From NCBI GenBank assembly GCA_964550725.1, contig CAZKAC010000033.1:1-44635 (forward strand): a stretch of 44,635 nucleotides of DNA, written 5' to 3'. The first letter of the stretch is position 1; each line of letters starts with the position of its first letter. Under the pieces are notes generated by a model. The model made no database searches. It was not told the origin of the DNA and saw nothing but the letters and a program-made list of their open reading frames with translations. The translations under genes were made by a program, and so were the position numbers. Of the stretch, positions 3,683-44,540 are shown piece after piece. Source of the DNA: an uncultured archaeon (lineage in GTDB: Archaea > Iainarchaeota > Iainarchaeia > Iainarchaeales > JAAZKV01).

Positions 3683-3839
3683 TTAACCACGATATATTTA
3701 TTCCACAAATAGATTTGTGAGCCATTAATACAAATTATTCTCATCACAAATCTTTATAAATCTTGTTTGTTTAGTTTTAAAAACTATTTTTCAAAAAACA
3801 ATTTATTTACTCAACTATTATTTTTTTGATTCTTGTTTT

Positions 3840-4622: not shown

Positions 4623-4740
4623 TCAAAAAACACCTTTCATAAGATTTATTTTAAAAAAAACTGATATACTACAATCAGATAAAAATTATCTATTTAGGAG
4701 TATTTTTAAAGCTTATTAATATGATTTTTATTGAACAATT

Positions 4741-16064: not shown

Positions 16065-16078
16065 CTTTGGTGAAAAAT

Positions 16079-20388: not shown

Positions 20389-21216
20389 TCAATTTGAAAA
20401 CAAGCCCACCCAAATCAAAAATAATGCAATAATTATTAATAAAATTAAAAACCAATTACTCATAAACATATTTGTTAAAGAACTTAAAAATTCTTTTTTT
20501 TTAGTTTTTTCAATTATTTTTTTTGATGTAATAATTGAAACTTTTTTTCCTTTATTTTTAGTAAATTTACCACTTTCAACAAGTAATTCTTTTGTATATT
20601 CTATCCATTTTTTTGGATCCTTTAAATCATTAATTGTTTCTTTTGTTAATTCAACAAATCCTTTTTCTCTTTCAGGAACCTCATCAATCCCATAAACCTT
20701 ACCATCCACTGCGTTTATTTTAATATTAAAAATTCCCTCTTTTACCTCGACAAAAGTTTCATAAAAAGGAATTAATACTTTTTTTACATTTGAAATAACT
20801 ACATTTTCTTTAGGAACATGAAAATATTCCGCAATTTTAAATTGAATAATTTCACTTTGTTCTTTTTTATCAATGGTTGTTTCTTTTTCTTCAAATGGAA
20901 TTAAAGGAGCCTCATTTGAAACATCTTTGATATTTGATTTAACTAAATTTGATAAATCTTTTTCAACAGAAACACTTTCACCATTTAATAACAAAAACCC
21001 ATCAACTGAACTTTCAATAATCTTCTCACCATTAACTTCTTTTTCTTTAAAATAATGATAATTAAACAAAAAATAGGGCACGAGACTTAATTTCAATGTG
21101 GCTATTTTAAATTCGTGCCAATTTTTTTCTTTTATAGAGGACTCTATATCTTTCGCAACTTTTTTTCCTGTTACTTTTAAAGGCAACAGGGGGCTGCCAA
21201 CATACAAAAAATTCAC
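20389..21216 (-). CDS. Tail-anchored membrane protein of unknown function, translationally coupled to sepF
   Basis: 275-codon ORF with no internal ATG until near its end. A GTG start at 21216 overlaps the sepF stop (GTGA). Single C-terminal TM helix (WFLILLIIIALFLIWVGLF). No family recognised. Confidence 0.6.
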   Translation of the reverse strand: MNFLYVGSPLLPLKVTGKKVAKDIESSIKEKNWHEFKIATLKLSLVPYFLFNYHYFKEKEVNGEKIIESSVDGFLLLNGESVSVEKDLSNLVKSNIKDVSNEAPLIPFEEKETTIDKKEQSEIIQFKIAEYFHVPKENVVISNVKKVLIPFYETFVEVKEGIFNIKINAVDGKVYGIDEVPEREKGFVELTKETINDLKDPKKWIEYTKELLVESGKFTKNKGKKVSIITSKKIIEKTKKKEFLSSLTNMFMSNWFLILLIIIALFLIWVGLFSN

Positions 21217-21578
21217 TGTCCTTTTCTTTTAATTATTTTAACTCTTGAAGGAGTAATAAGAATTCGATCTTCAGAAATTCTAGCAATATCCCCATCCATT
21301 TCATCAATTTGTTGTTTAATTAATGAAACAAGTTCTTTCAATTTCAAAGCATTTCTTTTAGAAAGATCACTTATATTAACTAATGCAATATTTCCATTCT
21401 TTACTTCATTAACTATTGCATCTGCATCTGTTTCAACAATTAAATCCATTGGTTTCACAAATGCATCAGCATTATCATATGTTTCTTCTGGTTCTTCATC
21501 AAGAGTATTCAAAAATTCTTCAATATCTACTCCTTCCTCTTTTGCCATTACTTTATTAAATAAACCCAAAAATACCAC
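21213..21578 (-). CDS. sepF: Cell division protein SepF (archaeal FtsZ membrane anchor)
   Basis: N-terminal amphipathic MVFLGLFNKVM, acidic linker, then the SepF/DUF552 core: IALVNISDLSKRNALKLKELVSLIKQQIDEMDGDIARISEDRILITPSRVKI. Confidence 0.8.
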   Translation of the reverse strand: MVFLGLFNKVMAKEEGVDIEEFLNTLDEEPEETYDNADAFVKPMDLIVETDADAIVNEVKNGNIALVNISDLSKRNALKLKELVSLIKQQIDEMDGDIARISEDRILITPSRVKIIKRKGQ

Positions 21579-23453: not shown

Positions 23454-26400
23454 TCACATAAACTCAAATAAACTTTTTTGCTTAACTTTATCATTATTAA
23501 AAATTGAATCAATCTCTTTTTCAATCATATCTAATCTTTGAATTAAATAAGAACTTAAATTTTCTTGTTTTGCCATATTTTGTGCAATTTTTAAATACTT
23601 TCTTACTGAGCCTTGGTGGATAGTTAGTATGATTGCATTTTTTCCACACTTATAACATTTTCCACTTAAAGGAACACGCCTATATTTTTCGTTACAATTT
23701 GTACATCTAAAAGTTTGCCGTGAAAATGCACGAGCATTACCAATTATATCCGGAAGAAAGTGTGAACCCATTACTTTTTCTAAACAATCTTTTGAATCAA
23801 CCGCCATAATCTTTTTTTGTAATATATTCTGACGCATAATTTTTTCTTCCATTGTTTTTAGTTGAATGTATCTTGAAGTTTTAGGCCCTTCATCAAAAGT
23901 ATCAGTATCATGAGTAAACCCAATCCCAGTATATTGATTATCTTGTCCAATTTTATTTTTTACAATTTCAATATTTTTTAAAAAAGGATCACAAATTTTT
24001 GATGCTTTTTCATAAAAATCTAAAGGATACTCAAAAACAGTTTCCATTTCATGAACCTCATCGTCAATTTCATTAGGTGAAATGATTGTTGAAAATACAA
24101 TTGGAGCATCCATTTTTCCACCATTTCTATTTGCTAAATATTTTTGAGAAAAATTAAGCAATCCATCCATCATTAACATTACTGAATCTTGATCCCCATC
24201 ACAATCATAAATAGCCAAATTACCATGCCCTCCAATAAAATTTTTCTCTTTTTCAACTATCAAATCGAAAACTTTCCCATACCCATTAATTTCTTTTATT
24301 TCTTTCAACTCATCAATAACAAAATCTCCAAAAAAAGAGGTTCTTTTATGAGTGAATGTTTTTTTGTTTAAACTTTTGAAAACTTTTTTCTTTTTTCCGA
24401 ATAATAATTTTCCAATTTTTAAAATATCTGTGGAATACAATCTTATTTCTTGGGAAATATAGTTTATGGGTTTTTTATAATAATTAATTAGTTCCCCTTT
24501 AAGGAGTGTTCTTTTTTGTTCCATTAAATGTGGAAAATATCCTAACTGGTTTAATAAAAAACTCAGTTGATTAATCATTTTTTTGTTAACTGAACTGATT
24601 CTTATAGAATTTTGTGAGATAAATCCATCACCAACAATAAAACCGGCGATTAGTCCGGAAATAAACAAATCATTTGAATTTATTATTTTGGGAGAAATTT
24701 TTTTATTTTTTGCTCTTTTTCCTGATTCAAGAACATCAACAAACAAATCATAAAACACTCTTCCTGAAATAGTTATATAATCTAAAACCATATTTTTTGT
24801 TTTTCTTTTTTCAATTGTTGGTTTTTTACCGATTTTTTCAAAGAAAGAAACTATTTTTTCCGTTATTTCCTTTTCAGCAGATATAAAATTTACTTGATAA
24901 ACATATTTTTTGTTTTTGCCATTATTTGTTGTTCGGGCATAACCATCACTCAAAAATAACCCCACTATTTCCCCAAATTCCTTATCTAAAATTATTTTTA
25001 CAGGAATTCTGGATTTTTGTTTCATATAATATATTTTTTTTGCAAAATGTATTCCGAAATATGAATAAATTTTTTCATATAACTCTAGAGGCAGCGCATC
25101 AAAACTCAACGCGGTGTGAATTGATTTCCCTGATTTGTAATTAATTTTTTTTGCAAAAACACCATACCCTATTTTTAATATTTTTTCATGAACAATTTTT
25201 TTATTGTCTCCGAGAGAGATTCTTAAATTGTTTTTGTTTTCTTTTTTTGAATAAAAATCAAATAAATTTATTTCATTATTTTTTTGAAAAGGAATTTTTT
25301 GTTTTAAAGAAAGTAATTTATCACCAATTGTCAAATCAGAAATTTTTTGGTGAGTAATACAATTATTTTTTAGAACCATTAATTCATGGTCTTTTGTTAA
25401 TTTTAATTCTCTACCATATTTAGTTTTAACTGAAAATATTTTTTTGGGAGATTTTCTGGCAGTTATTCCAGTTATTTTTCTTTTTTCTAATTTTCCTTTT
25501 GAATTGATTGTAAAAGTATTAATGTTATTTAATTCTTCCAATTTTTTTCCTTTCGAGAGGGAACCAATTTCAACAAAACCAATTTTTCCATTTTTCTCAA
25601 CAAGAATTGGTGTTTCAAAAACTAAACAATTCCTCCTTTTTGCACAAACAAAATAAGGATGTCCATAACCAAGCCTTGATTTTGTATAACCAATTACTCT
25701 TGCAGTTACTGCTGCTGATGTGTGCGGAGCTAATCCAAGAACCAATACTCCAATTAAATCATCTTTTGTTTTTGCATTATAGAATGGAGCTAATTTATAA
25801 AATCGTTCTAATTCATCATCAATAAATCTAGATACATTTAACATCCAATCCCCACAAGTTTCATTTACAATTATGTCTTGAGGAAACATTTCAACTATTT
25901 GTTCGGGATCAGTAAGATCTTTTCCAAAAATGTCTTTTAAGTATCCAAACTCACGAGCTTTTTCAATAGTCATATTTATTTCTCTAGGTTTAAAATGAGT
26001 AATTGTAGCATTTAATAATTCAAACCTTGATGTACCATCACGAAAAATATGCACATTATGTCTTGCTCTTAAAATTGCTTTTTCCAAAGGTTCAGTTTCT
26101 TTTATATCAGAAATCATACCTTTTACTCCCTTTACAATTTCTGGCATTGGTACTCTTAAATTATCTTTTGCGATTTCAAACATTTTTCTCAAATTAACTT
26201 CATGTTCCCCCGAAGGAACTGTTTGCGAACCACATTTCATGCATTTTTCACCCGAGACACTTTTACCACAAGTTCTACAATATTGCATTAATTTTGTTCT
26301 CTCCCCACACGCAAGACAATGAGATAAAAAAGTTAATTTATTACATTTAATACATTTATATTCTGCAATATCAATATTTATTTTCCCAGATTCATTATTG

Positions 26401-28286
26401 TGTTCATCAGTTGCTTTATTTATACTTCGTATGTTCCCCCCAGATAAACCAATTGGGAATAACCCATGTGGATTTCCTTTCATTTGCCTTTGTTTTGCCT
26501 GCTCAGGCCTACCCATTCTGCCCCCAATAAAATTTCCTGCTTTGTCTCGAATTATAATCCCACTTACCTCAGACAAATATTCCAAAACATCATCTTTAGA
26601 GCTTTCTTTCTTTTCAATTAAAGAAAATGTTTGAATTATACTTTTTGCAAATTCATCTATAATAATTTTTCCACAATTAATTTTATGAGGCAAACCAATA
26701 GCTTCTAAAAATCTTTTTGTCTCAACTACATTTTCTAATTCTATTTTTTCGTTTTGAATTTTTCCAAACAACAATTTGTTATGTAGCATTCTTATTTCTT
26801 TTTCATTTAATGCTTTATAAAAATGAATATACTTTGGGTGTAAAGGAATACCTCCTTCTTTGGATAATTTAATTGCTTCTTCTTCTCCTACTTTACGAGG
26901 ATTTGAAATAATGTGTTCAACATTACTTAGTTTTAATTTACCATCATCTACTGCTTTTTTTAACTCAAGAACCCACCATTCTTCACAATAACCTGGAGGA
27001 ACTAAAGGATGAGCACTTTTTCTAAAATCACCATAAGACGAAAGTAAATCCCCAATATATAAAATTTTTTTAACATCATTTCTTATTTTTTTTGCATCTT
27101 CAGTACTATTTACTCTCATTACATCCCCATTATGCAATAATACTATTGGACCATCAATTGTAGTACATGGAAAAAATTGTGTTGCTTTTCCTGGTCTTTC
27201 AATTTTTCCGTGTGTACCCACTGCAATAAATTCATCAAATAAAATCATTCCTGCTGGATTGATTGCTTTTGCCATAATCCCAGTATTTCTTGCACGCCCA
27301 TACCTTAACCTAAACCCTCCCCAATGACTAGGATATGCAAGAACTGGTCTTCCAGCAGCTAAACCATCTAATATTTTTTTGTTAGGTTTTATTTCAATTT
27401 TTGTTTCTGTTTTTTCTACTTTAACAATTTGTTCTAAAAAACTCCAATCTAATCCAGCATATTTTTTCGCTTTATCCATAACCCATAATGCTTTGAGAGC
27501 TAAACCTTCAGAAATTACTAATCCAACTCCTCCTCTAATTCTATTTGTAGGCACCCTTTGCAAATCACGATGCACAGAAACTTCAACTTCTTCAGTAGGT
27601 ACTCCATTTACACAAACAGGACAATTTGTTATAATAATTCTTATTTCATCATCTGGAATTTTATATTGTCTAGAAATAATTTCTGTTTGATAAATACCTA
27701 TTTCTTCAACATATCTTTCAACTTCATCTTGAGTAGGTTTATACTTATCTATTCCCAATAATTGCCTTCCATAATCTCCCAAAATCAATGGAATTACTGT
27801 CGATGATCCACCCGCTGCTCTTATTGGCCCCGCAAAATAAATATCAACATATTTTGTACCATCAGGATTTTTATTTATTTCAATCCTTGGCAACCCATCT
27901 AATGGAGCAACAACCACTCCTTCTGTTTGTATTAACAAACAAGCTTTGATTGCAATTTCAAGTCGTTTTGCAGGATCTGGAATAGAACACCATTTTTGTT
28001 CAATAATTTCTTTAAATAATTGAAAATATGTTTCCATCCTATCTGGTTTTTCAAAAATAACTTCACGATATCTTCTCGCTAACCCCGGTAACCCAATTAA
28101 TGTTTCAGCCCTATCTGCTAAATCTACTGCAGGAGTTGTTTCTACAACTACAGTAGTATCTAAACCGGTTGCTTTTGCTTTCTTTGCAATTTCTAATTCT
28201 ATATCAACACGACTTCGTAAATAATCAAAATATTTTTTTATTTCAGGAGTGGAAGGGATAACAACATTTAAGTCCTTTTCAATCAT
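23454..28286 (-). CDS. polC: DNA polymerase II (PolD) large subunit DP2, interrupted by one intein
   Basis: 1610 aa (1135 aa without the intein). DP2-type N-terminus and a Zn-finger cluster CIKCNK..CLACG..CRTCG..CMKCG. The catalytic motif GHPYFVCAKRRN / CDGDQDSVMLMMDGLLNFS is split by the insert. C-terminal Cys4 (CTNCNEKYRRVPLSGKCYKCG). The start ATG overlaps the DP1 stop (ATGA at 28283-28286). Confidence 0.95.
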   Translation of the reverse strand: MIEKDLNVVIPSTPEIKKYFDYLRSRVDIELEIAKKAKATGLDTTVVVETTPAVDLADRAETLIGLPGLARRYREVIFEKPDRMETYFQLFKEIIEQKWCSIPDPAKRLEIAIKACLLIQTEGVVVAPLDGLPRIEINKNPDGTKYVDIYFAGPIRAAGGSSTVIPLILGDYGRQLLGIDKYKPTQDEVERYVEEIGIYQTEIISRQYKIPDDEIRIIITNCPVCVNGVPTEEVEVSVHRDLQRVPTNRIRGGVGLVISEGLALKALWVMDKAKKYAGLDWSFLEQIVKVEKTETKIEIKPNKKILDGLAAGRPVLAYPSHWGGFRLRYGRARNTGIMAKAINPAGMILFDEFIAVGTHGKIERPGKATQFFPCTTIDGPIVLLHNGDVMRVNSTEDAKKIRNDVKKILYIGDLLSSYGDFRKSAHPLVPPGYCEEWWVLELKKAVDDGKLKLSNVEHIISNPRKVGEEEAIKLSKEGGIPLHPKYIHFYKALNEKEIRMLHNKLLFGKIQNEKIELENVVETKRFLEAIGLPHKINCGKIIIDEFAKSIIQTFSLIEKKESSKDDVLEYLSEVSGIIIRDKAGNFIGGRMGRPEQAKQRQMKGNPHGLFPIGLSGGNIRSINKATDEHNNESGKINIDIAEYKCIKCNKLTFLSHCLACGERTKLMQYCRTCGKSVSGEKCMKCGSQTVPSGEHEVNLRKMFEIAKDNLRVPMPEIVKGVKGMISDIKETEPLEKAILRARHNVHIFRDGTSRFELLNATITHFKPREINMTIEKAREFGYLKDIFGKDLTDPEQIVEMFPQDIIVNETCGDWMLNVSRFIDDELERFYKLAPFYNAKTKDDLIGVLVLGLAPHTSAAVTARVIGYTKSRLGYGHPYFVCAKRRNCLVFETPILVEKNGKIGFVEIGSLSKGKKLEELNNINTFTINSKGKLEKRKITGITARKSPKKIFSVKTKYGRELKLTKDHELMVLKNNCITHQKISDLTIGDKLLSLKQKIPFQKNNEINLFDFYSKKENKNNLRISLGDNKKIVHEKILKIGYGVFAKKINYKSGKSIHTALSFDALPLELYEKIYSYFGIHFAKKIYYMKQKSRIPVKIILDKEFGEIVGLFLSDGYARTTNNGKNKKYVYQVNFISAEKEITEKIVSFFEKIGKKPTIEKRKTKNMVLDYITISGRVFYDLFVDVLESGKRAKNKKISPKIINSNDLFISGLIAGFIVGDGFISQNSIRISSVNKKMINQLSFLLNQLGYFPHLMEQKRTLLKGELINYYKKPINYISQEIRLYSTDILKIGKLLFGKKKKVFKSLNKKTFTHKRTSFFGDFVIDELKEIKEINGYGKVFDLIVEKEKNFIGGHGNLAIYDCDGDQDSVMLMMDGLLNFSQKYLANRNGGKMDAPIVFSTIISPNEIDDEVHEMETVFEYPLDFYEKASKICDPFLKNIEIVKNKIGQDNQYTGIGFTHDTDTFDEGPKTSRYIQLKTMEEKIMRQNILQKKIMAVDSKDCLEKVMGSHFLPDIIGNARAFSRQTFRCTNCNEKYRRVPLSGKCYKCGKNAIILTIHQGSVRKYLKIAQNMAKQENLSSYLIQRLDMIEKEIDSIFNNDKVKQKSLFEFM
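24204..25628 (-). mobile_element. Intein (475 aa) with a LAGLIDADG homing-endonuclease domain inside DP2
   Basis: The boundaries were mapped codon by codon. Cys1 is tgt at 25628-25626 (KRRN|CLVFETPILVEKNG). The last residue Asp is gat at 24206-24204, followed by Cys+1 at 24203-24201 (NLAIYD|CDGDQD). Block B is TKDHELMV. There are two LAGLIDADG motifs (IVGLFLSDGYA, LIAGFIVGDGFI). Block F-like is VFDLIVEKEKNFIGG. Confidence 0.9.
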
Positions 28287-31805: not shown

Positions 31806-32852
31806 ATGAAAAACATTTATCTTGGCAATTATAAAAAATATTTAATTTTACCCATAATTGTTAGTATATTTTTTTTAATCGTTACTTTAATTTATCCAGG
31901 AATTCCACAAGGAATTGATTTTACTGGCGGAACAATAATGATTATTCATTCAGAAAATGAACTTTCTGCGCCAGCAATCGAACAAGTATTAAAAAATGAA
32001 TTTGATCTCACAGAACTCACTGTTTCTACAATTTCCTCCCCAACCGGACACGGAGCATGGATACAATATAAAACAGAACCTATAATTTCAAACGCTGAAG
32101 CAGAATTAGTTCTTGCTGAACAAAAATTAAGTAATAAAGAAGAATCCATTATGCACTCTAATAATGTTCTTGAGATTTTCAAAAAAACTCCTGAGAATTT
32201 TTCTAATTCCAAACTTGCATTAATTGCTGCACAAGATGCTCTCACTGAATATAAAGAATTGTCATCAGAAAAAATGATTGCGATAATTTCACAAAAATTA
32301 AATCTTGGTGAAAATATTGAATACCAAAAACGAGAAGTTTCTCCAACACTGGGCTCAACTTTTTATTCATCAGGAATTTGGGTCGCATTATGGTCATTAA
32401 CTTTAGTTGTTTTTGTAATATTCTTATTTTTTAGAAAACTTGTTCCATCAATGGCAATAATTCTTTCGGGAATGTTTGATATTTTAGGTGCACTTGCAGG
32501 AATGGCTTTATTTGGAATACCTCTATCGTTAGTTTCAATACCAGCACTATTAATGCTAATTGGATATTCTGTTGACACAGACATAATGTTAACACATAGA
32601 TTAACTAAAAAAACTTCTCAAAAACCTAGTGAGCGTGCAATAGATTCTATGAAAACTGGTTTAACAATGACTTTTACAACTCTCGCAGCATTAACTTCAA
32701 TGTTAATAGTTTCATATTTTTACCAAATTGAAGTAATTTTTCAAATAGCCGCAATTCTTTTCTTTGGATTATTAGCTGATTTAATCTCAACCTGGTTTAT
32801 GAATGCACCATTATTACTTTGGCATATTGAAAATAAAGGAGGGAAATTATGA
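31806..32852 (+). CDS. secF: Protein-export membrane protein SecF
   Basis: N-terminal TM, then GIDFTGGT. The C-terminal bundle of about 5 TM helices has the typical SecDF pattern (GYSVDTDIMLTHR). Preceded by AGGGGG. The stop overlaps the secD start (ATGA-type, 32849-32852). Confidence 0.85.
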   Translation: MKNIYLGNYKKYLILPIIVSIFFLIVTLIYPGIPQGIDFTGGTIMIIHSENELSAPAIEQVLKNEFDLTELTVSTISSPTGHGAWIQYKTEPIISNAEAELVLAEQKLSNKEESIMHSNNVLEIFKKTPENFSNSKLALIAAQDALTEYKELSSEKMIAIISQKLNLGENIEYQKREVSPTLGSTFYSSGIWVALWSLTLVVFVIFLFFRKLVPSMAIILSGMFDILGALAGMALFGIPLSLVSIPALLMLIGYSVDTDIMLTHRLTKKTSQKPSERAIDSMKTGLTMTFTTLAALTSMLIVSYFYQIEVIFQIAAILFFGLLADLISTWFMNAPLLLWHIENKGGKL

Positions 32853-34444
32853 ATAGGTTAATAAAAAACTGGCAAATTTCTATCCTTGTAATATTTTTAT
32901 TACTTGCAATAACCATTATTTTGGTTAATGGATTAACTCTTGGAATTGATTTTAAAGGAGGAACACTTTATCAAATTGAATTACAAAATGAAGTTTCAAC
33001 AGATGAAATAAATAGAATTTCTTCAATAATAAATCAAAGAATTGACCCCCAAGGATTAAAAGATGCCACAGTTTCACCGGTAGGGGATAAATTTATTGTA
33101 ATACAAATTTCCGAAACAAATCCATCAGAACTTGAAAAAATAGAATCTAGAATAAGACAACAGGGAAAATTTGAATCAACCCTTAATGGAGAACTAGTTT
33201 TTACAGGAGATGAAATTATTACAGTATTAAGAGGCTCTTCAGGATATGGAGTATTTCAAGCAGGACAAAATGTTCAATGGATAATGCCTTTTGTTTTAAG
33301 CGAACAAGCTGCCAAAAGATTCATGGAATCATCTTTCCACCAATGTGATGCAGTTTCTACTACACCTACAGGAAAACCAATTTATGATTGTGAAAAAACA
33401 TATTTCTTTTTAGATAAACCAGATGCATTAATTGTTATTAGTGAGGACCAATATGATATTGATTCAGATTTATTTTATATTGGAGATAGAGCAAAAAATA
33501 TCCCATCCGAATCAGACATTGATGAATTAATAAAAAATTCTCTATTAGACATTCTTGTTTTTAGTTCAATGGAATCTTTAGATGAAAACATTATGAATAA
33601 TGTTTTAGCAAATACAAATAGTGTTATAGTGTCACCCGATATTCCAAAAGAAGCAATTACTTTTTTAGAAAATAAAGGATTCATAGTTACCATACAACCA
33701 ACAATTCAAAATACTCCTTGGATTTGGAAAGTTTTAGGAGTTAGACAAATTATTTCATTAACTGAAGAAGTAACAAATGAAAAAGTATCTGATATTTCTC
33801 AAGCTGAATTAATTACTACCCTAACTATAAGAGGAACAAGAAATAATGTCCAAGAAGCAAGACATGACCTTGAAGAAATAACAATCCTTTTAGAATCAGG
33901 ATCATTACCTACTCCTGTTAAAAGTATTTCAAGAGAAACAATTTCACCATCACTTGGAGAATCATTTTTGTCCAACGTAATAATAATGGGAATTATTGCA
34001 TTAATAGTAGTTGTACTTGTAATTCTTGCGAGATATAGAATACCAAAATTAGCTATCCCAATATTCCTTACTGGATTAAGTGAAGTAATCATAATAATGG
34101 GTTTCTTAGCATTAATAAGAAGACCACTTGATTTAGCTGCTTTCGCTGGACTAATTGCTGCTGTTGGAACAGGAGTTGATTCACAAATATTAATTGCCGA
34201 TGAAATAATACGTGGAGAAAAAGAAGAAGTACACGAATCATTATTAACAAGAGCAAAAAATGCATTGTTTATAATAATGGCTGCCGCTTTAACAACAATT
34301 GGAGTAATGTTACCAATACTATTCTTTTCTTTTGGACTTGGAAAACTTGTTGGTTTTGCATACACAATAATTGCAGGAGCATTAATTGGAATATTTATTA
34401 CAAGACCAGCATTTTCAAAAATTGTTCAAAAAATAATTAAATAA
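32849..34444 (+). CDS. secD: Protein-export membrane protein SecD
   Basis: N-terminal TM, then GIDFKGGT. Large extracytoplasmic domain. C-terminal TM bundle with GTGVDSQILIADE. Preceded by GGAGGG. Confidence 0.85.
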   Translation: MNRLIKNWQISILVIFLLLAITIILVNGLTLGIDFKGGTLYQIELQNEVSTDEINRISSIINQRIDPQGLKDATVSPVGDKFIVIQISETNPSELEKIESRIRQQGKFESTLNGELVFTGDEIITVLRGSSGYGVFQAGQNVQWIMPFVLSEQAAKRFMESSFHQCDAVSTTPTGKPIYDCEKTYFFLDKPDALIVISEDQYDIDSDLFYIGDRAKNIPSESDIDELIKNSLLDILVFSSMESLDENIMNNVLANTNSVIVSPDIPKEAITFLENKGFIVTIQPTIQNTPWIWKVLGVRQIISLTEEVTNEKVSDISQAELITTLTIRGTRNNVQEARHDLEEITILLESGSLPTPVKSISRETISPSLGESFLSNVIIMGIIALIVVVLVILARYRIPKLAIPIFLTGLSEVIIIMGFLALIRRPLDLAAFAGLIAAVGTGVDSQILIADEIIRGEKEEVHESLLTRAKNALFIIMAAALTTIGVMLPILFFSFGLGKLVGFAYTIIAGALIGIFITRPAFSKIVQKIIK

Positions 34445-35193: not shown

Positions 35194-35341
35194 TCACCAA
35201 GGCACCTTTTTAAGTTTCATTTTATATGCTGCAAAATTAGTCGCCATATGAGCAAACACAGTTACTATTAAAACAATTAAAACAACTTCTAATTCAGGAA
35301 AACGAATCAACATACTTAATAAAAATCCTCCAACCACAAAT
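35194..35341 (-). repeat. Copy B of a ~148-bp segmental duplication (3' end of carS)
   Basis: Hand alignment with 36228..36375 gives 19 mismatches in 147 nt (about 87% identity) and no indels. The similarity stops at the stop codon on one side and at the F-V-V-G-G codons on the other. Confidence 0.9.
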
Positions 35342-35601
35342 CTTGAACTAGAATAAACAGCTATTGCGAGCGGAGCTTCATATGAACTAACTCCAATATC
35401 AACAATATAACTTCGTTTTCCTTTAATTGGGATTGGATTAAAATTGTGGATAAACTTTTTTCCATAATTTAAATAGTCCGAATATTTTTGACCCTCTGGA
35501 TTGAATTTTATTGCACTTAAAAACATTTTTGTTCTATTTCTTCTTTTTTTTCTTTCTCTAATTCCTGAAAAAAAACCAGAAAGTTTCATATTCAGTTTCA
35601 T
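35194..35601 (-). CDS. Chimeric ORF: a ~87-aa N-terminal domain paralogous to the 34454..35119 product, fused in frame to a copy of the last 48 aa (TM segments) of CDP-archaeol synthase
   Basis: The N-part aligns at roughly 50% identity with the neighbour. The C-part FVVGGFLLSMLIRFPELEVVLIVLIVTVFAHMATNFAAYKMKLKKVPW differs at 2 of 48 residues from the CarS C-terminus. It could be a functional fusion or a rearrangement relic. Confidence 0.5.
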   Translation of the reverse strand: MKLNMKLSGFFSGIRERKKRRNRTKMFLSAIKFNPEGQKYSDYLNYGKKFIHNFNPIPIKGKRSYIVDIGVSSYEAPLAIAVYSSSRFVVGGFLLSMLIRFPELEVVLIVLIVTVFAHMATNFAAYKMKLKKVPW

Positions 35602-35642: not shown

Positions 35643-36227
35643 TCACAAAAGTTCAGAAAAATCATCTATATTTGTAAATCTTTTGGTACCATAATACCAA
35701 ATTAACAAAATTAATCCACTCATTATATACCATGTAAATATGTGAATGAGTTCTGCATCAAAACCAGCTTTAGCACTTAACAAAACAAGCATTAATCTTG
35801 GGATGTTAAAAAATAACAAAATAATTGTTCCTACCAAAAGCAATACTATTTTTTTCTTAATTTCTGGTTTTTTTAGAGAAAAAATTACTGATGCGAGGAT
35901 GCTAGCACTAACTAAACCTGTGCAGGAGTTAGTTACAATAAATTTATTCCCATTCAAAAAAATAACATTATCCAAAACGAATAACCCTGGTCCGACAAGA
36001 AGGTTGGTAGATGTAGTAGCTGAAATATATGCAAGCCATGAATTAAGCATTGTAAGGTCTAATAAGTTGATGATTGTTGATAGAATAGTAAAAATAACGA
36101 AGAATTTTAATAAAAAAAGCCCTATTTTAATATTATTTTTATTGTTTTCAAATGGTTTAGGATTGTTTGTTTTTTTCTTATTTTTTTTTGAACTTGAGTT
36201 TATTGTTTTTTTTGCTTTTTTAACCAT
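35643..36227 (-). CDS. Exosortase/archaeosortase-family integral membrane protein (short form)
   Basis: Lys-rich N-terminus, then about 5 TM helices. It carries the family's candidate Cys-Arg-His triad in order and spacing: IVTNSCTGLVSASIL, FFNIPRLMLVLL, AELIHIFTWYIMSG. The ATG directly abuts the carS stop (TAAATG). Confidence 0.6.
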   Translation of the reverse strand: MVKKAKKTINSSSKKNKKKTNNPKPFENNKNNIKIGLFLLKFFVIFTILSTIINLLDLTMLNSWLAYISATTSTNLLVGPGLFVLDNVIFLNGNKFIVTNSCTGLVSASILASVIFSLKKPEIKKKIVLLLVGTIILLFFNIPRLMLVLLSAKAGFDAELIHIFTWYIMSGLILLIWYYGTKRFTNIDDFSELL

Positions 36228-36375
36228 TTACCATGGCACCTTTTTTAATTTCATTTTGTATGCTGCAAAATTGGTCGCCATGTGTGCAAACACCGTCACG
36301 ATTAAAATAATTACAACTACCTCTAATTCCGGAAAACGAATCAACATACTTAATAAAAATCCCCCCACTACAAAA
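36228..36375 (-). repeat. Copy A of the ~148-bp segmental duplication (authentic 3' end of carS)
   Basis: See copy B (35194..35341). Confidence 0.9.
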
Positions 36376-36746
36376 TCTAATTGGTCGGCAAGTAACCACA
36401 ATTCTCCACTCTCAAAACCAAGTCTTCGTTTAAAAAAACTTTCAACCAAATCCCCAAACAACGCACCAATCGAAAGTAAAACAATTAACTCAAAATAATT
36501 TGGAATTAATTTAAAAATTCCTGGAAAAATTGTTGCAAAAAAACTTCCCGCAATCAACCCCCCCAATACTCCGCTAAAAAAACCAACCCATGTTTTACCT
36601 TTTCCAAATATTCTTTGTTGTCCGATTTTTTTTCCAAAATCTATTGGAAATTTTCCATGAAAAATAATAGGTGTTGCGTTAGCAAAATACATAGGGATAG
36701 CGTAAAAAACTACAATCAATATTGTTTCTAAACCCAAATCAATCAT
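36228..36746 (-). CDS. carS: CDP-archaeol synthase (CDP-2,3-bis-O-geranylgeranyl-sn-glycerol synthase, DUF46 family)
   Basis: Motifs YFANATP, GKGKTWVGF, GDLVESFFKRRLG and ADQLDFVVGG match the CarS family. The ATG at 36746 is preceded by GTGAT (agtgattaatATG). The track start 36755 is that GTG. Confidence 0.85.
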   Translation of the reverse strand: MIDLGLETILIVVFYAIPMYFANATPIIFHGKFPIDFGKKIGQQRIFGKGKTWVGFFSGVLGGLIAGSFFATIFPGIFKLIPNYFELIVLLSIGALFGDLVESFFKRRLGFESGELWLLADQLDFVVGGFLLSMLIRFPELEVVVIILIVTVFAHMATNFAAYKMKLKKVPW

Positions 36747-36757
36747 ATTAATCACTA

Positions 36758-37456
36758 TTACAAAAATAATAATCCCATTATAAGCGCAAATAATGCTCCT
36801 GATAAACTCCCTAATAGATTTACTTGTGTGTTATTTAATAGCTTTTGCCTCTCAAAAATTGCTCCAAAAATAGAGTCAACTGTTGTTCCCACCAGTCCAG
36901 AACAAATTATGACAACCGAAAGTAAAGGATTTAGATAAATTGAAAAATAAATTAAGCCAATTATTGTTCCACCAAATAATGCAGCTAATTCGCCAAGTAA
37001 TGTTACTCCTCCATCTACTCCTCTTTTACATTTTTTAAGAGTAGTTATCAATATCGGGTCTGATTTTGAATAAAACCCAATTTCTGATGACAATGTATCT
37101 GCCAGGGCTGCTGAAATGGCTCCAAAAAAACCAAGTTCAAATAGTAAAGCTTTTTCGGGAAATATCGGAATAAGAAAGAGCATTAGTAATGCGGGGGAAG
37201 AGTTTCCAATTACATTTTTTATTCCTCTGCGTTCATGTTTTTTTACTGGAAAATTACTGGCAATTTGTCCAACAACAAAAAATGCTACAAATGCAAACAA
37301 ATTCAAAACAGGGTTTGGCCCCCAAGTTATTGATGCAATTCCAACAGCATCAGCAATTAAGATTCCTTCTAAGTCAAGTAACTTTTTTTTGTACGAATAG
37401 ATTGAAAATATTCCTAAGAAAAGGAAAACTATTGCTAATTCAATTTCAGATATCAT
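36758..37456 (-). CDS. DUF92 / TMEM19 / VTE6-like integral membrane protein (putative isoprenoid-phosphate kinase family)
   Basis: Polytopic membrane protein with NVIGNS, AISAALADTLSSEIG and KRGVDGGVTLLGELAALFGG. These match my recollection of DUF92 (A.ADT.ASE.G ... G..GGVS..G). The start abuts the S3Ae stop and the stop lies 2 nt from the carS track start. Confidence 0.6.
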   Translation of the reverse strand: MISEIELAIVFLFLGIFSIYSYKKKLLDLEGILIADAVGIASITWGPNPVLNLFAFVAFFVVGQIASNFPVKKHERRGIKNVIGNSSPALLMLFLIPIFPEKALLFELGFFGAISAALADTLSSEIGFYSKSDPILITTLKKCKRGVDGGVTLLGELAALFGGTIIGLIYFSIYLNPLLSVVIICSGLVGTTVDSIFGAIFERQKLLNNTQVNLLGSLSGALFALIMGLLFL

Positions 37457-38050
37457 TTACTTAGCCTCTATGAATTTTGCTTTTGCAGGAAGCACTTTCT
37501 TCATAAGGCATATTTTTTTAGAATTCTTAAATATATCGTTTGTAATGTTTCCAAATAATAATTCTTTTGCAACATCTTCAAAATCTTTTCCTCTTAAATC
37601 TTTCAAAGCATCAATCATTATTTTTCTAACTCCTGTTTTTTGTTTAGCTGTAGCTTTATTAGAAGTTATTGCTACAAGAGTTATTCGAGCATCACCCTTT
37701 TGAATAGGAACTTTTTCAACAACCGAAATTTTACTAGCTCGTCTTCTAATCATTCTACCTAAACTACCTCTATTCATTTCAAATTTAATAAGCATAGTAT
37801 TAGCATTTTGTCCCTGAACATCATTTACTTTAAAAGTTACTTTAGTATCTCTTTTTGCTCTTTGACCAGTTAATACATCAAGAGTTACACCCATAACTCT
37901 ACCAGAAATATGATGATTTTTTTCACCAGGTATTTCTCCAAGAGCTTTTTTATTAAAAGTCTTAGATGCATTAATAGTAAACCATTTCTTTTTTTTCCAC
38001 TTATCAACAGTCTTTCTTGATCCCGAACTTTTTCCTTTAACATCAGCCAT
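37457..38050 (-). CDS. rps3ae: 30S ribosomal protein S3Ae (eS1)
   Basis: KKKKWFTINASKTFNKKALGE near the N-terminus and length about 197 aa, typical of eS1. The ATG at 38050 is preceded by GTGATTTTT. Confidence 0.88.
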   Translation of the reverse strand: MADVKGKSSGSRKTVDKWKKKKWFTINASKTFNKKALGEIPGEKNHHISGRVMGVTLDVLTGQRAKRDTKVTFKVNDVQGQNANTMLIKFEMNRGSLGRMIRRRASKISVVEKVPIQKGDARITLVAITSNKATAKQKTGVRKIMIDALKDLRGKDFEDVAKELLFGNITNDIFKNSKKICLMKKVLPAKAKFIEAK

Positions 38051-38152
38051 AAAAATCACTTTAACAAATTATTAATTTTCTCCAAAACATTATTACTATT
38101 ACCTTCAAATAAAATATTTTTCCCATTCAAAATTTTTGCCTTAATCTCCATT

Positions 38153-38578
38153 TTATTTCACCAATAATGCTGCTTGTTCTGGACTATAACGCCAATCACT
38201 TGGAAGTCTTCCCTTTTTAGAATAATATTTTCCAAGTCTTCTTATTTTTGAAACAGTAAGTTGATACCCTCTTTTTGCAGAATAATCTTTCTTATTAATA
38301 GTCATGTGATTTTGCAAAGTAACACTTTTTCTAATTAAATTAAGCATATCTTCAGGAATGTCCCCCAACAAGTTATTTTCTTCTAAAACTTTTTGAATAC
38401 TCTTTCCAGTAAATTCATTAAAATCTCTTACCCCATGTTCATCTCTTAAAATTATTCCAATTTGGCTTGGACCATGTCCTGCGTTTGCAAGAGAAACCAC
38501 TTCAGCTTCAGCCGATTTAACATCAAACCCAATAACAGGTTTTGTCTTAATTGTTTCCTTAACCAAATTACTCACCAT
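38153..38578 (-). CDS. rps15: 30S ribosomal protein S15 (uS15 / S13e type)
   Basis: GPSQIGIILRDEHGV, IPEDMLNLIRKSV, SKIRRLGKYYSKKGRLPSDWRYSPEQAALLV. The N-terminal basic ARMH..KRGKSGS segment usual in archaeal S15 is not present. Confidence 0.85.
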   Translation of the reverse strand: MVSNLVKETIKTKPVIGFDVKSAEAEVVSLANAGHGPSQIGIILRDEHGVRDFNEFTGKSIQKVLEENNLLGDIPEDMLNLIRKSVTLQNHMTINKKDYSAKRGYQLTVSKIRRLGKYYSKKGRLPSDWRYSPEQAALLVK

Positions 38579-38818: not shown

Positions 38819-40393
38819 ATGGTTCTTACAATAAAAAATCTTTCAATTACACTTGGGACTAAGGAAATATTTGTTAATGAAAATATTGGAATTGCTGCAG
38901 GAAGCAAAGTTGGATTAATTGGTAGAAATGGAGTTGGAAAAACAACTTTATTGAAAGCGATTTTAAAACAAATACCATATAATGGAACAATTGATTTCCA
39001 TGGAAAAGCTGCTTATTTTTCACAACACATTGGATTAGATAAAACAAAAACTGTGCGTGAAACGATTAATGAAAGTACACAAATACACCACCAAAATGAT
39101 TTCGAAAAAGAAATTATTAAAATAGAAAAACTCCTCGCCAACCCCGAAACTTATAACAATAATGACTATGCAACAAAATTATCAGAAAAATATGTTGAGT
39201 TACAATCAAAAATAAATCAACAAAACATAACCCATTCAACAAGTAAAATCAAATCAATTTTACAACTACTTGAGGTTAAAGAATCTTGGTTAGATCAAAA
39301 AGTAGAAACTTTATCAACAGGCCAAAGAGCAATTATCGCATTAGCTCAAATCTTATCTTCACACGCAGAACTTTTATTATTAGATGAACCAACAAACCAC
39401 CTTGATTTTAAAAGACTAAATATTTTAGAAAAATTTTTACAAGACTTTAAAGGCACAGTAATTATGGTTACTCATGATAGATATTTTTTAGACCAAACTT
39501 GTAACACAATAATAAAAATAGAAAACGGGAAATGGATTAAATACAATAGTAATTATTCAGGATATCTAAAAACACGCGAAATGGAATTTGAAGCACAAAA
39601 AAAAGCATACTTAGTTGAACAAAAATATATTGCAGATGAAAAAGATAAAATTTCTAGAATTGGAACAAGTCCTCAAAAAGTAAAACAAGCAAAATATAGA
39701 ATAAAACATTTAGCAAAAAGAGATCAAATTCAAAAACCTGATTTAGATAAATCTAAATTTACAACAGTAATAGAATCTACTCCAATACGCGCAACAAGAG
39801 TACTAGAATTAATTAATTTAAATGTTGGTTATGTTAAACCATTAATAGAAAATATTAATTTAGAAATAGGCGCTGGTGAAAGATATGTCATAATTGGAGA
39901 AAATGGAATTGGAAAAAGTACCTTATTCAAAACTATTGAAGGAAGATTGCCTGCCCTTTCTGGAAAAGTTATTTTAAATCAAGAAACAAAACTTGGATAT
40001 GTAGATCAAGAATTACAAGACTTAACAAATCACGCAACACTATATGATGAAATATATGCTATGACAAAAGATGTTTATAAAACTCGACAAAACTTATCTT
40101 TAGGTGGTTTTGTTGAAGAAGAAGATGTATATAAACCAATAAAATTACTTTCATTAGGAGAAAAATCAAGACTTAATCTAATAAAAGTTTTATTAAAAAA
40201 ACCAAACTTATTATTATTAGATGAACCAACAAACCATCTTGATATAGATGCTAGAGAAATAATAGAAACTGCTTTTATGAATTATGAAGGAGCTATATTG
40301 GCTGTTTCACACGACAGATATTTCATAAATAAAATTGCTCAAAGAATAATAAAAATTGAAGATAAAAAAATAAAAGAAATGAAAAAAAAATAA
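38819..40393 (+). CDS. ABC-F-type soluble twin-ABC ATPase (no transmembrane domain)
   Basis: Two ABC cassettes. The first has GRNGVGKTT / LSTGQRA / LLLDEPTNHLD; the second has GENGIGKST / LSLGEKSRL / LLLDEPTNHLD. A helical insert (arm) sits in cassette 1. A ~70-aa basic inter-domain linker (YLKTREMEFEAQKKAYLVEQKYI...KVKQAKYRIKHLAKR) resembles the ABCF PtIM. There is no N-terminal FeS domain, so this is not ABCE1. Confidence 0.8.
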   Translation: MVLTIKNLSITLGTKEIFVNENIGIAAGSKVGLIGRNGVGKTTLLKAILKQIPYNGTIDFHGKAAYFSQHIGLDKTKTVRETINESTQIHHQNDFEKEIIKIEKLLANPETYNNNDYATKLSEKYVELQSKINQQNITHSTSKIKSILQLLEVKESWLDQKVETLSTGQRAIIALAQILSSHAELLLLDEPTNHLDFKRLNILEKFLQDFKGTVIMVTHDRYFLDQTCNTIIKIENGKWIKYNSNYSGYLKTREMEFEAQKKAYLVEQKYIADEKDKISRIGTSPQKVKQAKYRIKHLAKRDQIQKPDLDKSKFTTVIESTPIRATRVLELINLNVGYVKPLIENINLEIGAGERYVIIGENGIGKSTLFKTIEGRLPALSGKVILNQETKLGYVDQELQDLTNHATLYDEIYAMTKDVYKTRQNLSLGGFVEEEDVYKPIKLLSLGEKSRLNLIKVLLKKPNLLLLDEPTNHLDIDAREIIETAFMNYEGAILAVSHDRYFINKIAQRIIKIEDKKIKEMKKK

Positions 40394-41725: not shown

Positions 41726-41760
41726 TTGTTATAACAAGGCTTTGTTTATTAACTTAGGCT
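41726..41760 (+). repeat. Left terminal inverted repeat (overlaps the transposase stop codon)
   Basis: See the mobile element entry. The transposase TAA is at 41754-41756, inside the repeat. Confidence 0.7.
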
Positions 41761-42935
41761 TTTAATACAATTTTTTGGGTTTCATAGGCTTTTGTATATA
41801 AAGCCTGTTCTAAATTTAATTCATAATAAGCAGAAATTAAACAACATAAATTATGACAAATTATTTTGCATAGAATTTCGTTTACATTGGCAGTATAATT
41901 TTTTGTCATTAGGTTTGAACCGAACTTTCGCTTAATCATTGAGAATGTTGTTTCTACGTTTGAACGCTTATGGTATCGTTCAAAGTATTCTTGTGGATGT
42001 TCTTTGAAGTAAAGCCACATTTTTCGCCACACTAAACCATTATTTCCACCAGTTACATTTGATTTGAACGGAATATATGGTATTGCACCAAGTTTAACAG
42101 TTTCTTCTAAATTTTGCCTTGACAAATAAGCCATATCAGCACTAACTTCTTTCCTCTTAAAATTAATAGCCGTCTTTTGAATTAAAGGCAAATAATTAAC
42201 TGTATCAGAACTTCCAACACCTTGTTGGTCTGTTATCAATACACTTGTTACAATGTTTGTTTTTGTTCCAACTGTTAAGTGGCATTTTCTGTAAATCTTT
42301 TTTTCTTTTTCTTCATTCCACTTGTAATCAAACCAACGACCAAAAACACTTGTAGAAAAACCAGAAGCATCAACACTAAACTGTTCTTCAACTTCTCTTA
42401 ATGGCAAGCCACTGGTTTCAACAATCTTTTTCAAAATATCAGTTAAACGAGAATCATTAAAATATTTCATCAATGTTGTGAAACAAGGAATTGTTTCAAT
42501 ACAATTCAACTCTTTTAAAAGTTTTAAATCTGAGATTGTTCTTCTTGAAGAATTTTTAATATAATTCTTCATAACCATACAATAAAGCACATCACGAATA
42601 TTTGCTGTTGGTCTTCCAGTTCTTTGTAAAGGCTCAAACTCAAAGATCTCCAAAACATTATTTAATAATTGTAAAAACAATTGTTTCTCATTTAATTGTG
42701 CTAAATTATAAGCTGACCAATCTATTACTGGTAAAGGTTGTTCTTGATAAACAAACTTTGACGGTTCGTAAGTGTCGGCTATGTGTTGTTTTTTTGATAA
42801 AAATTTGTAGTTGCAATTTTTACAAGCGTATTGTTGTCGCCAAAGAGTTTTTTTTGTGTTAAACACTTTGCCTCTTTTAACTATTTTTTCTGAACCGCAA
42901 CGGAAACACTTAAACTCTTTTTCCACATTAACCAC
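41754..42935 (-). CDS. DDE transposase of the IS4/IS5 superfamily with an N-terminal zinc ribbon
   Basis: N-terminal CFRCGS...CKNCNYKF. Candidate DDE residues are in VDASGFST, VSADMAYLS and SNVETTF. There is an exact Y-x2-R-x3-E-x6-K signature (YHKRSNVETTFSMIK). The apparent start is GTG at 42935. Confidence 0.8.
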   Translation of the reverse strand: MVNVEKEFKCFRCGSEKIVKRGKVFNTKKTLWRQQYACKNCNYKFLSKKQHIADTYEPSKFVYQEQPLPVIDWSAYNLAQLNEKQLFLQLLNNVLEIFEFEPLQRTGRPTANIRDVLYCMVMKNYIKNSSRRTISDLKLLKELNCIETIPCFTTLMKYFNDSRLTDILKKIVETSGLPLREVEEQFSVDASGFSTSVFGRWFDYKWNEEKEKKIYRKCHLTVGTKTNIVTSVLITDQQGVGSSDTVNYLPLIQKTAINFKRKEVSADMAYLSRQNLEETVKLGAIPYIPFKSNVTGGNNGLVWRKMWLYFKEHPQEYFERYHKRSNVETTFSMIKRKFGSNLMTKNYTANVNEILCKIICHNLCCLISAYYELNLEQALYTKAYETQKIVLKA

Positions 42936-43067: not shown

Positions 43068-43301
43068 ATGAATCAAAGAGAAATACTTAATAGTGTATCC
43101 GAAGAAAAGTTCAATCAAGAAGAAGAAAACGCAACACTATCTCATGATGGAAAACAATTTCTAATAAGAATACCAAAAGTAATAGCCGAAATAAAAAAAA
43201 TGAAAAAAGGCGACCAAATAAAATTCCACATAAAAATAGCAGAAAAACCAATGCCGACAGAAGAATCAGAATTAACAATTGAATATGTGAGAAAAAAATG
43301 A
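43068..43301 (+). CDS. AbrB/SpoVT-like (swapped-hairpin) small DNA-binding protein
   Basis: The ATG is preceded by AGGAG. The segment GKQFLIRIPKVIAEIKKMKKGDQIKFHI fits the AbrB-type pattern (..hRIPK.h...h.h..GD.h.h). Confidence 0.55.
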   Translation: MNQREILNSVSEEKFNQEEENATLSHDGKQFLIRIPKVIAEIKKMKKGDQIKFHIKIAEKPMPTEESELTIEYVRKK

Positions 43302-43510
43302 GTAATAACGATTACAAATCAACTATTAGAAAGCTTTTACAAGCACAAAGACGACCACTATCAACCAAAAGAATAGCAACAAAAACAAATATGGCATGGC
43401 CAACAGCAAAAAAATATTTAAACCAAATGAAAAAACAAGGAACACTCACAGCATACAAAAGTAGCAACCGAATCTTTTGGCAACCAACGAAAAAAAGAAA
43501 AGATTGGTAG
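43298..43510 (+). CDS. Small winged-helix DNA-binding protein
   Basis: ATGA overlap with the upstream gene. RPLSTKRIATKTNMAWPTAKKYLNQMKKQGTLTAY is a typical HTH plus wing. Confidence 0.5.
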   Translation: MSNNDYKSTIRKLLQAQRRPLSTKRIATKTNMAWPTAKKYLNQMKKQGTLTAYKSSNRIFWQPTKKRKDW

Positions 43511-43534: not shown

Positions 43535-44245
43535 TTAATTAGGTAATGATGGTGGGCCAGTTGCTGTTGAACCATAATTTAAGTAACAATCGTTTGCTAC
43601 TTTAACAACCATTACAATTCCAATATCTTCTTCTCTAAATTCATTTTCAAGATTTTTTCGATATTGTGCTTCTTGGGAACTACTTGGGTAAAACCATTTT
43701 TGATTTTCTGAATCCCAAAAATTGAATCCGGTTAAAGAACAATTAGAAAACAAATAATTATTTTTTACTCCTAACATATATGGATTAATTGCTAAAAAGT
43801 TCCACCCTTGAATAAGTTTTGCATATTTTTGATTTGTTTCAATTGAGGGCAAAGTATTTTTTTTACCAGCAGTAGTCCAAGTTTTACAATTTCCATTTGA
43901 ATGAACCCATGCTGCACCAGTAATTAAACCATTAACTGAATTTTGACTATCTGCCACTATTGTTAATGAGGGTGAACCAATATATTTTTTTTGACTTGCA
44001 TCATAAAAATATTGTTGTGGATATTTTTGGTGCCACCCAGTATTATTATTTAAATAATAACATTCACTTCTTTCAGAGTCTGAAAGTTCATTTGCAATAG
44101 TTGGTGGGGTGCCTGTTCCAATAGGAACTAAATTCCAACCTTCTTTTAAGTTTATTTCATAAGTTCCTGTTGTTGAATCATAATTTGCAAAAACAACTGA
44201 ACTTACTAATAAAACTAATCCTAAAATCATTAATATTTTCTTCAT
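43535..44245 (-). CDS. Secreted protein with two GWN-motif beta-rich modules. It ends in PPSLPN.
   Basis: The ATG is preceded by AGGAGG. Signal peptide MKKILMILGLVLLVSSVVFA. Internal repeat of LKEGWNLVPI / LIQGWNFLAI. Four Cys. Confidence 0.65.
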   Translation of the reverse strand: MKKILMILGLVLLVSSVVFANYDSTTGTYEINLKEGWNLVPIGTGTPPTIANELSDSERSECYYLNNNTGWHQKYPQQYFYDASQKKYIGSPSLTIVADSQNSVNGLITGAAWVHSNGNCKTWTTAGKKNTLPSIETNQKYAKLIQGWNFLAINPYMLGVKNNYLFSNCSLTGFNFWDSENQKWFYPSSSQEAQYRKNLENEFREEDIGIVMVVKVANDCYLNYGSTATGPPSLPN

Positions 44246-44259
44246 TTTTCATTCCTCCT

Positions 44260-44457
44260 TTATTCTGGCAGTGCTGGTGGCATTGGTGTTTCGTCTCCAG
44301 TTCCTGCTCCATTATTTGTATTATTTGTGTTGTCTGGTTGTGTTACAACATTTCCTGAACCATTATTTGTGTTATCAGTGTTTGTTGTTTCTGTGCAACC
44401 AAACATTAAACCAATTGCAACAAAGCAAATTAGCAAAACAATAATTATTTTCTTCAT
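44260..44457 (-). CDS. Small lipoprotein-like low-complexity (Asn/Thr/Gly) protein. It ends in PPALPE.
   Basis: The ATG at 44457 is preceded by GGAGG (the track start is TTG). Signal/lipobox-like MKKIIIVLLICFVAIGLMFGC, followed by a TNTDNTNNGSG...NTNNTNNGAGTG tract. Confidence 0.5.
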   Translation of the reverse strand: MKKIIIVLLICFVAIGLMFGCTETTNTDNTNNGSGNVVTQPDNTNNTNNGAGTGDETPMPPALPE

Positions 44458-44540
44458 GCTTAAAGCCTCCAATTTATATTATTTTAATGCTAAAATACTA
44501 TAAAAACATTTGTTTTAAAAAAAATGAATTTATGTACACA

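Follow-up and report, generated by a model that had tools for sequence, protein, structure and literature searches.

The DNA considered here, a 44,635-nt contig (CAZKAC010000033.1) of an uncultured archaeon of the Iainarchaeota, is referred to below as the window. It carries on its minus strand a string of four genes ending in carS and the gene of a small archaeosortase-family protein. The coordinates and junctions that an earlier sequence-only reading had assigned to these genes were all confirmed from the open reading frames (ORFs) and the sequence. The string, with one signal inside it, is as follows:

37457-38059, minus strand: ribosomal protein S3Ae (PF01015, E=7.5e-41), listed with a GTG start; the true start is likely the ATG at 38050
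36758-37456, minus strand: DUF92 / TIGR00297-family integral membrane protein (PF01940, E=9.6e-47)
36228-36755 (GTG start) or 36228-36746 (ATG start), minus strand: CarS, CDP-archaeol synthase (PF01864, NF003114)
35643-36227, minus strand: small archaeosortase-family protein of 194 aa (PF09721, TIGR04178)
36237-36240, minus strand: Shine-Dalgarno (SD)-like GGTG within the 3' end of CarS, 9 nt 5' of the sortase ATG, a candidate translational-coupling signal

As read from the sequence, the gaps within the string are 0, 2-11 and 0 nt. The S3Ae TAA (37459-37457) abuts the DUF92 ATG at 37456. The DUF92 TAA (36760-36758) is followed by 'tagtgattaat', with GTGAT at 36755-36751, and then by the CarS ATG at 36746, and the CarS TAA (36230-36228) directly adjoins the ATG at 36227 with which the sortase begins. 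SD-like motifs, GAGG (37468-37465) and GGTG (36240-36237), precede two of the internal starts by 8-9 nt. The ATG at 38050 as the start of S3Ae agrees with the 197-aa calls in a sister strain, and CarS probably starts at the ATG at 36746, giving a protein of 172 aa. The gap-free packing emphasized in the sequence-only reading is thus real in its spacing but typical of a compact genome. The window has a GC content of 28% and very compact gene packing, and 7/21 of its other same-strand junctions are also no more than 2 nt wide or overlapping by ORF coordinates. Three tight junctions in a row are therefore unremarkable alone, since the genome is compact everywhere, and the spacing exceeds chance only weakly. 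The feature that does go beyond chance is that CarS and the sortase stay adjacent in relatives.

As judged from its sequence, the 194-aa protein is a genuine archaeosortase-family enzyme, the identity originally proposed for it. It scores 28.3 bits with PF09721 (Exosortase_EpsH; cut-off 25.7) and 33.3 bits with the exosortase/archaeosortase signature TIGR04178 (cut-off 23), which was matched by 19/19 members of the sortase clade. The Cys/Arg/His triad is present as Cys102 (codon at 35924-35922), Arg144 (35798-35796) and His162 (35744-35742), all checked in the sequence. These residues, together with Asn141, Gly104 and Trp166, are invariant in an alignment of the sortase with 18 homologues, all but one of which are 41-58% identical to it. 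The protein has a Lys-rich N-terminal tail of ~35 aa followed by ~5 transmembrane (TM) helices. The AlphaFold (AF2) model (pLDDT 81, pTM 0.73) has five long helices (residues 27-55, 59-76, 105-117, 123-153 and 158-185) and a small beta hairpin, as would be expected of a polytopic integral membrane protein. Solved structures in the PDB gave no matches to the sortase, either by sequence or by fold. Residues 1-35 (36122-36227) form a Lys/Asn-rich extension of low confidence in the model; it differs in length among clade members, and those of 158-162 aa lack it.

The sortase stays below the cut-off of every subtype model: ArtE (36.6 bits, cut-off 95), ArtD (35.5, cut-off 125), XrtX (31.8, cut-off 170), pacearchaeosortase (26.1, cut-off 80) and ArtA (TIGR04125; 19.5, cut-off 75). 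None of the 19 clade members reaches any subtype cut-off. The best clade-wide E-value was that of ArtD (2.9e-15), still far under the 125-bit cut-off. The ArtD and pacearchaeosortase models were matched at all by 19/19 members and the ArtA model by 5/19. Since no subtype cut-off is reached in the presence of TIGR04178 and the triad, the protein is assigned to an uncurated small subtype, and its identity as ArtA is rejected. The parallel with ArtA and its PGF-CTERM proteins, drawn in the sequence-only reading, also fails on the side of the signals. No PGF-CTERM signal was matched in 15 window and 7 related-locus proteins scanned with NCBIfam, and the recurrent tails in relatives are of another type, described below.

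All 67 sortase homologues come from uncultured archaea, and a profile built from 8 sequences found 29 GTDB species representatives, likewise all uncultured archaea. The host names, where given, are Candidatus Iainarchaeum, 'ainarchaeum' or Diapherotrites, including Ca. Iainarchaeum andersonii SCGC AAA011-E11. The clade is thus small in protein size (158-195 aa) and found only in Iainarchaeota. Automated pipelines already label homologues 'exosortase/archaeosortase family protein'. The window sequence itself occurs only in DNA metagenomes of freshwater, aquatic and sediment origin.

The two membrane proteins encoded upstream also passed the profile checks proposed for them. CarS matches PF01864 (E=3.7e-39) and the equivalog model NF003114 (172.3 bits, cut-off 148). 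The CarS clade profile aligns over its full length with Aeropyrum pernix CarS (PDB 5GUF; residues 12-174, E=3.6e-36). The protein is therefore taken as CDP-archaeol synthase, with a predicted CTP:archaetidic acid cytidylyltransferase activity. The product of the CarS family, CDP-archaeol, is the activated precursor of all polar archaeal lipids. The DUF92 protein scores 159.9 bits with PF01940 (cut-off 27.5) and 137.9 bits with TIGR00297, under the 205.85 cut-off of that model. Homology of DUF92 and CarS through a shared CTP-dependent superfamily was considered and found unsupported at the profile depth used (hhalign probability 1.8%).

The neighbourhood was mapped in 118 loci by tblastn/HMM and from database gene calls around nine homologues; individual loci are denoted by L numbers. 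Across the clade the block runs Bud32, S15, S3Ae, DUF92, CarS and sortase, followed by convergent SecD-SecF and then NOG1. Its further members in the window include:

38153-38578, minus strand: ribosomal protein S15 (PF00312, PF08069), first gene of the conserved S15-S3Ae-DUF92 unit
32849-34444, plus strand: SecD (PF02355 and PF07549, SecF/SecD), convergent with the sortase string
31806-32852, plus strand: SecF (PF02355 and PF07549, SecF/SecD), convergent with the sortase string

Retention of adjacency, counted for each neighbouring pair in 101 non-redundant loci, was as follows:

Bud32 to S15: 43/54
S15 to S3Ae: 59/59
S3Ae to DUF92: 67/68
DUF92 to CarS: 49/74
CarS to sortase: 73/78 (CarS sampled independently of the sortase)
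sortase to SecD: 50/58
SecD to SecF: 50/51
SecF to NOG1: 41/50

Conservation of the carS-archaeosortase adjacency, on which the sequence-only proposal depended, is evident from both directions. CarS precedes the sortase in 75/76 non-redundant sortase loci, the sole exception being L036 with its odd ORF-poor upstream region, and retention counted from CarS is comparable with that of SecD-SecF. With starts chosen heuristically, the sortase begins a median of ~1.5 nt after the CarS stop, and 81/94 of these distances are within -30..+10. The database gene calls give 0, 0, -7, +5, +68, +1, +5, +102 and -4. The pair stays intact in L025, where SecDF-NOG1 is inverted, in L037, where cis-prenyltransferase and AliA/AliB genes stand in place of the usual downstream genes, and in the window and L001, where a 220-aa gene is inserted downstream. 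In L037 (5001-7671) the pair is followed by an opposite-strand cis-prenyltransferase gene (PF01255) and by a gene of the AliA/AliB family of archaeal lipoprotein lipidation (PF01889), and genes for lipids and surface lipidation form a small cluster there.

The joint between DUF92 and CarS is of a different kind. It is split in 25/74 loci, a large subclade, by an insertion of ~1 kb. Wherever gene calls exist, the insert is an opposite-strand S49/NfeD membrane protease gene (L006:4488-5393, L037:4017-4958, L038:3965-4933; the insertion is present in ~20 further loci), and co-transcription of DUF92 and CarS is therefore broken in those loci. With this weak joint the string resolves into two tight units, S15-S3Ae-DUF92 and CarS-sortase. 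CarS is found without a following sortase in five loci. L114 has S3Ae-DUF92-CarS leading directly into SecD, so that this backbone exists without the sortase. L105, L111 and L117 have CarS without DUF92 in unrelated contexts (KaiC/RadB-like, ERCC4, OST3-like), and in L103 a nucleotidyltransferase/HEPN pair is inserted after CarS, followed by the contig end. An opposite-strand ABC-F ATPase gene lies between S15 and Bud32 at 38819-40393 of the window. Among loci with gene calls this gene is present only in the window and L001, while the others keep Bud32 adjoining S15.

Candidate substrates were sought in all related loci as proteins ending in a C-terminal TM helix with a basic tail. One tail recurs, in 14 distinct versions: [IV]-P-D-[NY], ~20 hydrophobic residues and then KKR(I). 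The proteins that bear it carry N-terminal signal peptides and are secreted and Cys-rich, and in the sortase-centred loci L004-L035 their genes lie 3-6 kb upstream of the sortase. They are found at:

L004:1586-2086
L008:2226-4175
L010:1149-4601
L014:1692-2165
L020:223-1287
L035:2007-2495 and 3089-4798
L039, L063, L065, L067 and L074

These PDN proteins share a C-terminal domain of ~90 aa and Cys-rich repeats, attached to varied N-terminal parts. In an alignment of the C-terminal module, with identities to the reference of 16-38% (67% for one pair), only four Cys and the Pro-Asp of the motif are invariant, and the Asn is nearly so. Curated sorting-signal models gave no match to the PDN tails, the best being Loki-CTERM with 12.8 bits against 19.9. 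A word-indexed protein search with the module returned 2 matches only, a count that the 5-mer index makes uninformative. The tails appear to have the architecture expected of a cognate sortase signal, one nearer to PEP-CTERM than to PGF-CTERM. From this architecture and the co-location of the genes, the [IV]PD[NY]-tail proteins are likely the substrates of the sortase.

Two ORFs of the window were considered in the same connection. The sole tripartite tail in the window ends the 567-aa product of ORF 16067-17770 ('IIPGIFWVGLIL...KVLKKKGLL'). It is not counted as an in-window substrate. The motif conserved in close homologues is [IV]P[LF]I[LF]W and not PDN, distant homologues are simply anchored by a C-terminal TM helix, and the protein is probably a tail-anchored surface protein. 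ORF 43535-44245, ending '...CYLNYGSTATGPPSLPN*', was rejected as a truncated PDN protein, the alignment being unconvincing and nothing TM-like following the stop. This ORF and the adjacent 44260-44472 encode secreted proteins, one with a lipobox-like LMFGC; their C-terminal ends are near-identical (...PPSLPN* and ...PPALPE*), with no TM helix beyond. A DDE transposase (PF01609, 393 aa) lies at 41754-42935 and is adjoined at 43068-43510 by two short ORFs of 77 and 70 aa that overlap on the plus strand. Probably this region is a mobile element that has inserted at the place where the PDN-tail genes are found in relatives.

On balance, we think it probable that carS and the small archaeosortase gene form a conserved functional unit for the lipid anchoring of PDN-type proteins, and that S15-S3Ae-DUF92 is separate from it. 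The two genes are most likely co-transcribed and translationally coupled, because their stop and start abut or overlap and the SD-like GGTG lies inside carS. CDP-archaeol made by CarS would be the source of an archaeol-based anchor lipid. By analogy with ArtA, the sortase, as a Cys/Arg/His membrane transpeptidase, would cleave the C-terminal tripartite signal of surface proteins exported through Sec and attach the C-terminus thus created to an archaeol-based lipid formed from CDP-archaeol. The signal cleaved would be the [IV]-P-D-[NY] motif, TM helix and K/R tail of the secreted Cys-rich proteins. The S15-S3Ae-DUF92 string would be an older syntenic unit, which in the window strain reaches carS without a gap.

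A link of archaeosortases with lipids derived from CDP-archaeol, assumed in the sequence-only reading, has experimental precedent. In Methanosarcina the synteny artA-pssA-pssD led to a test in Haloferax volcanii, which showed that ArtA-dependent cleavage and lipidation require PssA and PssD. These enzymes follow CDP-archaeol in the pathway, and archaetidylethanolamine has been proposed as the amine nucleophile (PMC7157517).

Several observations weigh against a functional carS-sortase unit of this kind. The whole region of ~12 kb is syntenic across the clade, and adjacency alone is no proof of shared function, since S15-S3Ae and S3Ae-DUF92 are equally tight. A transpeptidase needs an amine acceptor, and CDP-archaeol itself has no obvious one. 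Only 13 loci, all from a single subclade, yielded PDN-tail proteins, and no such protein is encoded in the 44.6-kb window. The conservation of the motif is partly common descent, as the C-terminal domain is homologous. No RNA runs were found to carry the window sequence.

A stronger version of the proposal is possible but doubtful: CarS and the mini-archaeosortase may be a dedicated and perhaps physically associated machine that channels newly activated archaeol to C-terminal anchoring of '[IV]PDN-CTERM' surface proteins, a class not described before. If this were true, no archaeosortase system would have been defined in DPANN before it, and it would give independent genomic evidence from outside Euryarchaeota for archaeosortases as lipid-attaching transpeptidases. 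The shortest clade members (~160 aa) would then rank among the smallest enzymes of the superfamily and be attractive for structural work.

Rather less probable is synteny without function, in which carS and the sortase gene are neighbours merely through slow rearrangement of a housekeeping region (ribosomal proteins, SecDF, NOG1, PolD) and the sortase does not depend specially on CarS for its processing of surface proteins. This would account for the conservation of the entire block from Bud32 to NOG1, for the equal tightness of the functionally unrelated S3Ae-DUF92 pair and for the common occurrence of tight junctions in the window. It agrees poorly with the persistence of the CarS-sortase joint where the flanks break, at DUF92|CarS, at sortase|SecD and in L025 and L037. 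Nor does it explain why the CarS stop and the sortase start typically abut or overlap, and the experimental link of archaeosortase with CDP-archaeol-derived lipids (PMC7157517) also argues against it.

The sequence-only reading had proposed a larger, three-enzyme pathway dedicated to lipidation, in which a polyprenyl-phosphate-kinase-like DUF92 protein acts together with CarS and the sortase. Such a pathway might salvage lipids in a reduced genome. The three genes are contiguous on the same strand in the window, DUF92 lies within ~2 kb of CarS in most loci, and the DUF92 family includes the plant phytyl-phosphate kinase VTE6, its only member with a known polyprenyl-phosphate kinase activity (PMC10849223). 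The proposal is nevertheless quite improbable. DUF92 is invariably attached to S3Ae (counts of 58/58 and 67/68) and often separated from CarS, by an opposite-strand gene where gene calls exist, and for this reason we place it outside the lipidation module. The sortase-free backbone of L114 and the CarS genes without DUF92 in L105, L111 and L117 point the same way, and the two proteins have no detectable homology. No functional data on archaeal DUF92 proteins were found in the literature search. The accompanying premise of a reduced genome lacking lipid synthesis is also doubtful, since Iainarchaeota have been reported to possess genes of the MVA pathway and perhaps to live freely (PMC10936187). 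The inclusion of DUF92 and S3Ae in the module was therefore an over-reading, which the comparison of loci corrects.

A role of the sortase as a processing protease or transpeptidase with a non-lipid acceptor (e.g. a glycan or another envelope protein), or mere release from the C-terminal anchor, would suit the very small size of the subtype (158-195 aa, ArtA having ~300 aa) and the fact that the acceptor is known for no exosortase or archaeosortase subtype beyond the partial evidence for ArtA, but it is quite improbable given the conserved coupling to the key lipid-activating enzyme and the lipid-related genes next door in L037.

The carS-sortase unit resembles the ArtA/PGF-CTERM system of H. 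volcanii in the TIGR04178 superfamily with its Cys/Arg/His residues, in substrates with a tripartite C-terminal signal (a candidate only in Iainarchaeota) and in the physical linkage of the sortase gene to a gene of the CDP-archaeol polar-lipid pathway. It differs in the enzyme, which is ~100 aa shorter and scores far below the ArtA cut-off, in the motif (candidate [IV]PD[NY] instead of PGF) and in the host, a DPANN archaeon instead of a euryarchaeon. The linked gene is CarS itself, one step upstream of PssA. Unlike artA-pssA-pssD, found in one genus, the linkage here is close to universal in a lineage of phylum level and takes the form of an abutting or overlapping pair.

The curated subtypes ArtD (TIGR04175), ArtE (TIGR04124), pacearchaeosortase (NF033505) and heimdallarchaeosortase (NF045528) are similarly small (~150-200 aa) and confined to single lineages, and as a group they include the best-scoring subtype models for the window sortase. 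Their cut-offs are reached by no Iainarchaeota member, however, and the candidate signal matches no curated CTERM model. None of the four is known to be linked to CarS. Bacterial exosortase/PEP-CTERM systems belong to the same superfamily, and the candidate signal resembles theirs in its pattern of [IV]-P-acidic-x, TM helix and Arg/Lys cluster. They differ in their bacterial hosts, and bacterial exosortases have 8 TM helices and are linked to exopolysaccharide loci rather than to lipid-activation genes (PMC6098224).

The window sortase is thus a new lineage-specific archaeosortase, probably translationally coupled to CarS. The literature search found no paper on archaeosortase-CarS adjacency or on an Iainarchaeota archaeosortase system. 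What is new here is the unusually tight linkage to CarS and the candidate new sorting signal. Lipid attachment by archaeosortases is at present still a model, for which the evidence comes from H. volcanii alone and from a single case of synteny, that of artA-pssA-pssD in Methanosarcina. The carS-sortase linkage, being independent and much tighter, strengthens the case that archaeosortases depend on the CDP-archaeol pathway. A minimal enzyme of ~160-190 aa and a candidate signal are offered for experiments. The system is also of interest for the construction of the cell surface in ultrasmall archaea, and so for their attachment to hosts or substrates.

Downstream of the sortase, part of carS occurs a second time:

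35194-35601, minus strand: chimeric ORF of 135 aa, in which the start of the downstream 220-aa gene (~87 aa from its 5' end) is joined to a second CarS 3' tail

The duplication is seen as a direct repeat of 145 nt (35196-35340 / 36230-36374, 88% identical), and beyond the chimeric ORF the 220-aa gene is present in full, as a divergent copy (87%). The window and the sister strain L001, whose sortases are 93% identical, stay collinear (98.6%) from S15 past the sortase to a point 260 nt inside the 220-aa gene. The second CarS tail is 99.3% identical to the CarS tail of L001, while the window's own CarS tail is 88% identical to the second copy. An assembly chimera was rejected as the cause, because independent Logan contigs (runs X1/X2) span the junction exactly; runs X3/X4 carry a strain without it. 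The duplicated tail is a real, strain-specific mosaic rearrangement that leaves CarS and the sortase intact, and the 135-aa ORF is probably a pseudogene.

Elsewhere in the window, the large subunit of PolD (DP2, 1610 aa; 23454-28286) carries an inserted intein that contains a LAGLIDADG homing-endonuclease domain. At 10608-20346 lies a run of three large ORFs for secreted or surface proteins (1818, 567 and 883 aa). The first has a SpaA/prealbumin-like domain, the second is the tail-anchored protein discussed above, with a Cys-rich 'CCxxxC' ahead of its anchor, and the third has no family match. At 20389-21578, SepF (21213-21578) shares 4 nt with a 275-aa ORF whose product has one TM helix, at its C-terminus, and the two may be a membrane-anchor pair of cell division. 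A secreted 273-aa ORF at 4741-5562 ends in tandem 'NPNIDSND' repeats.

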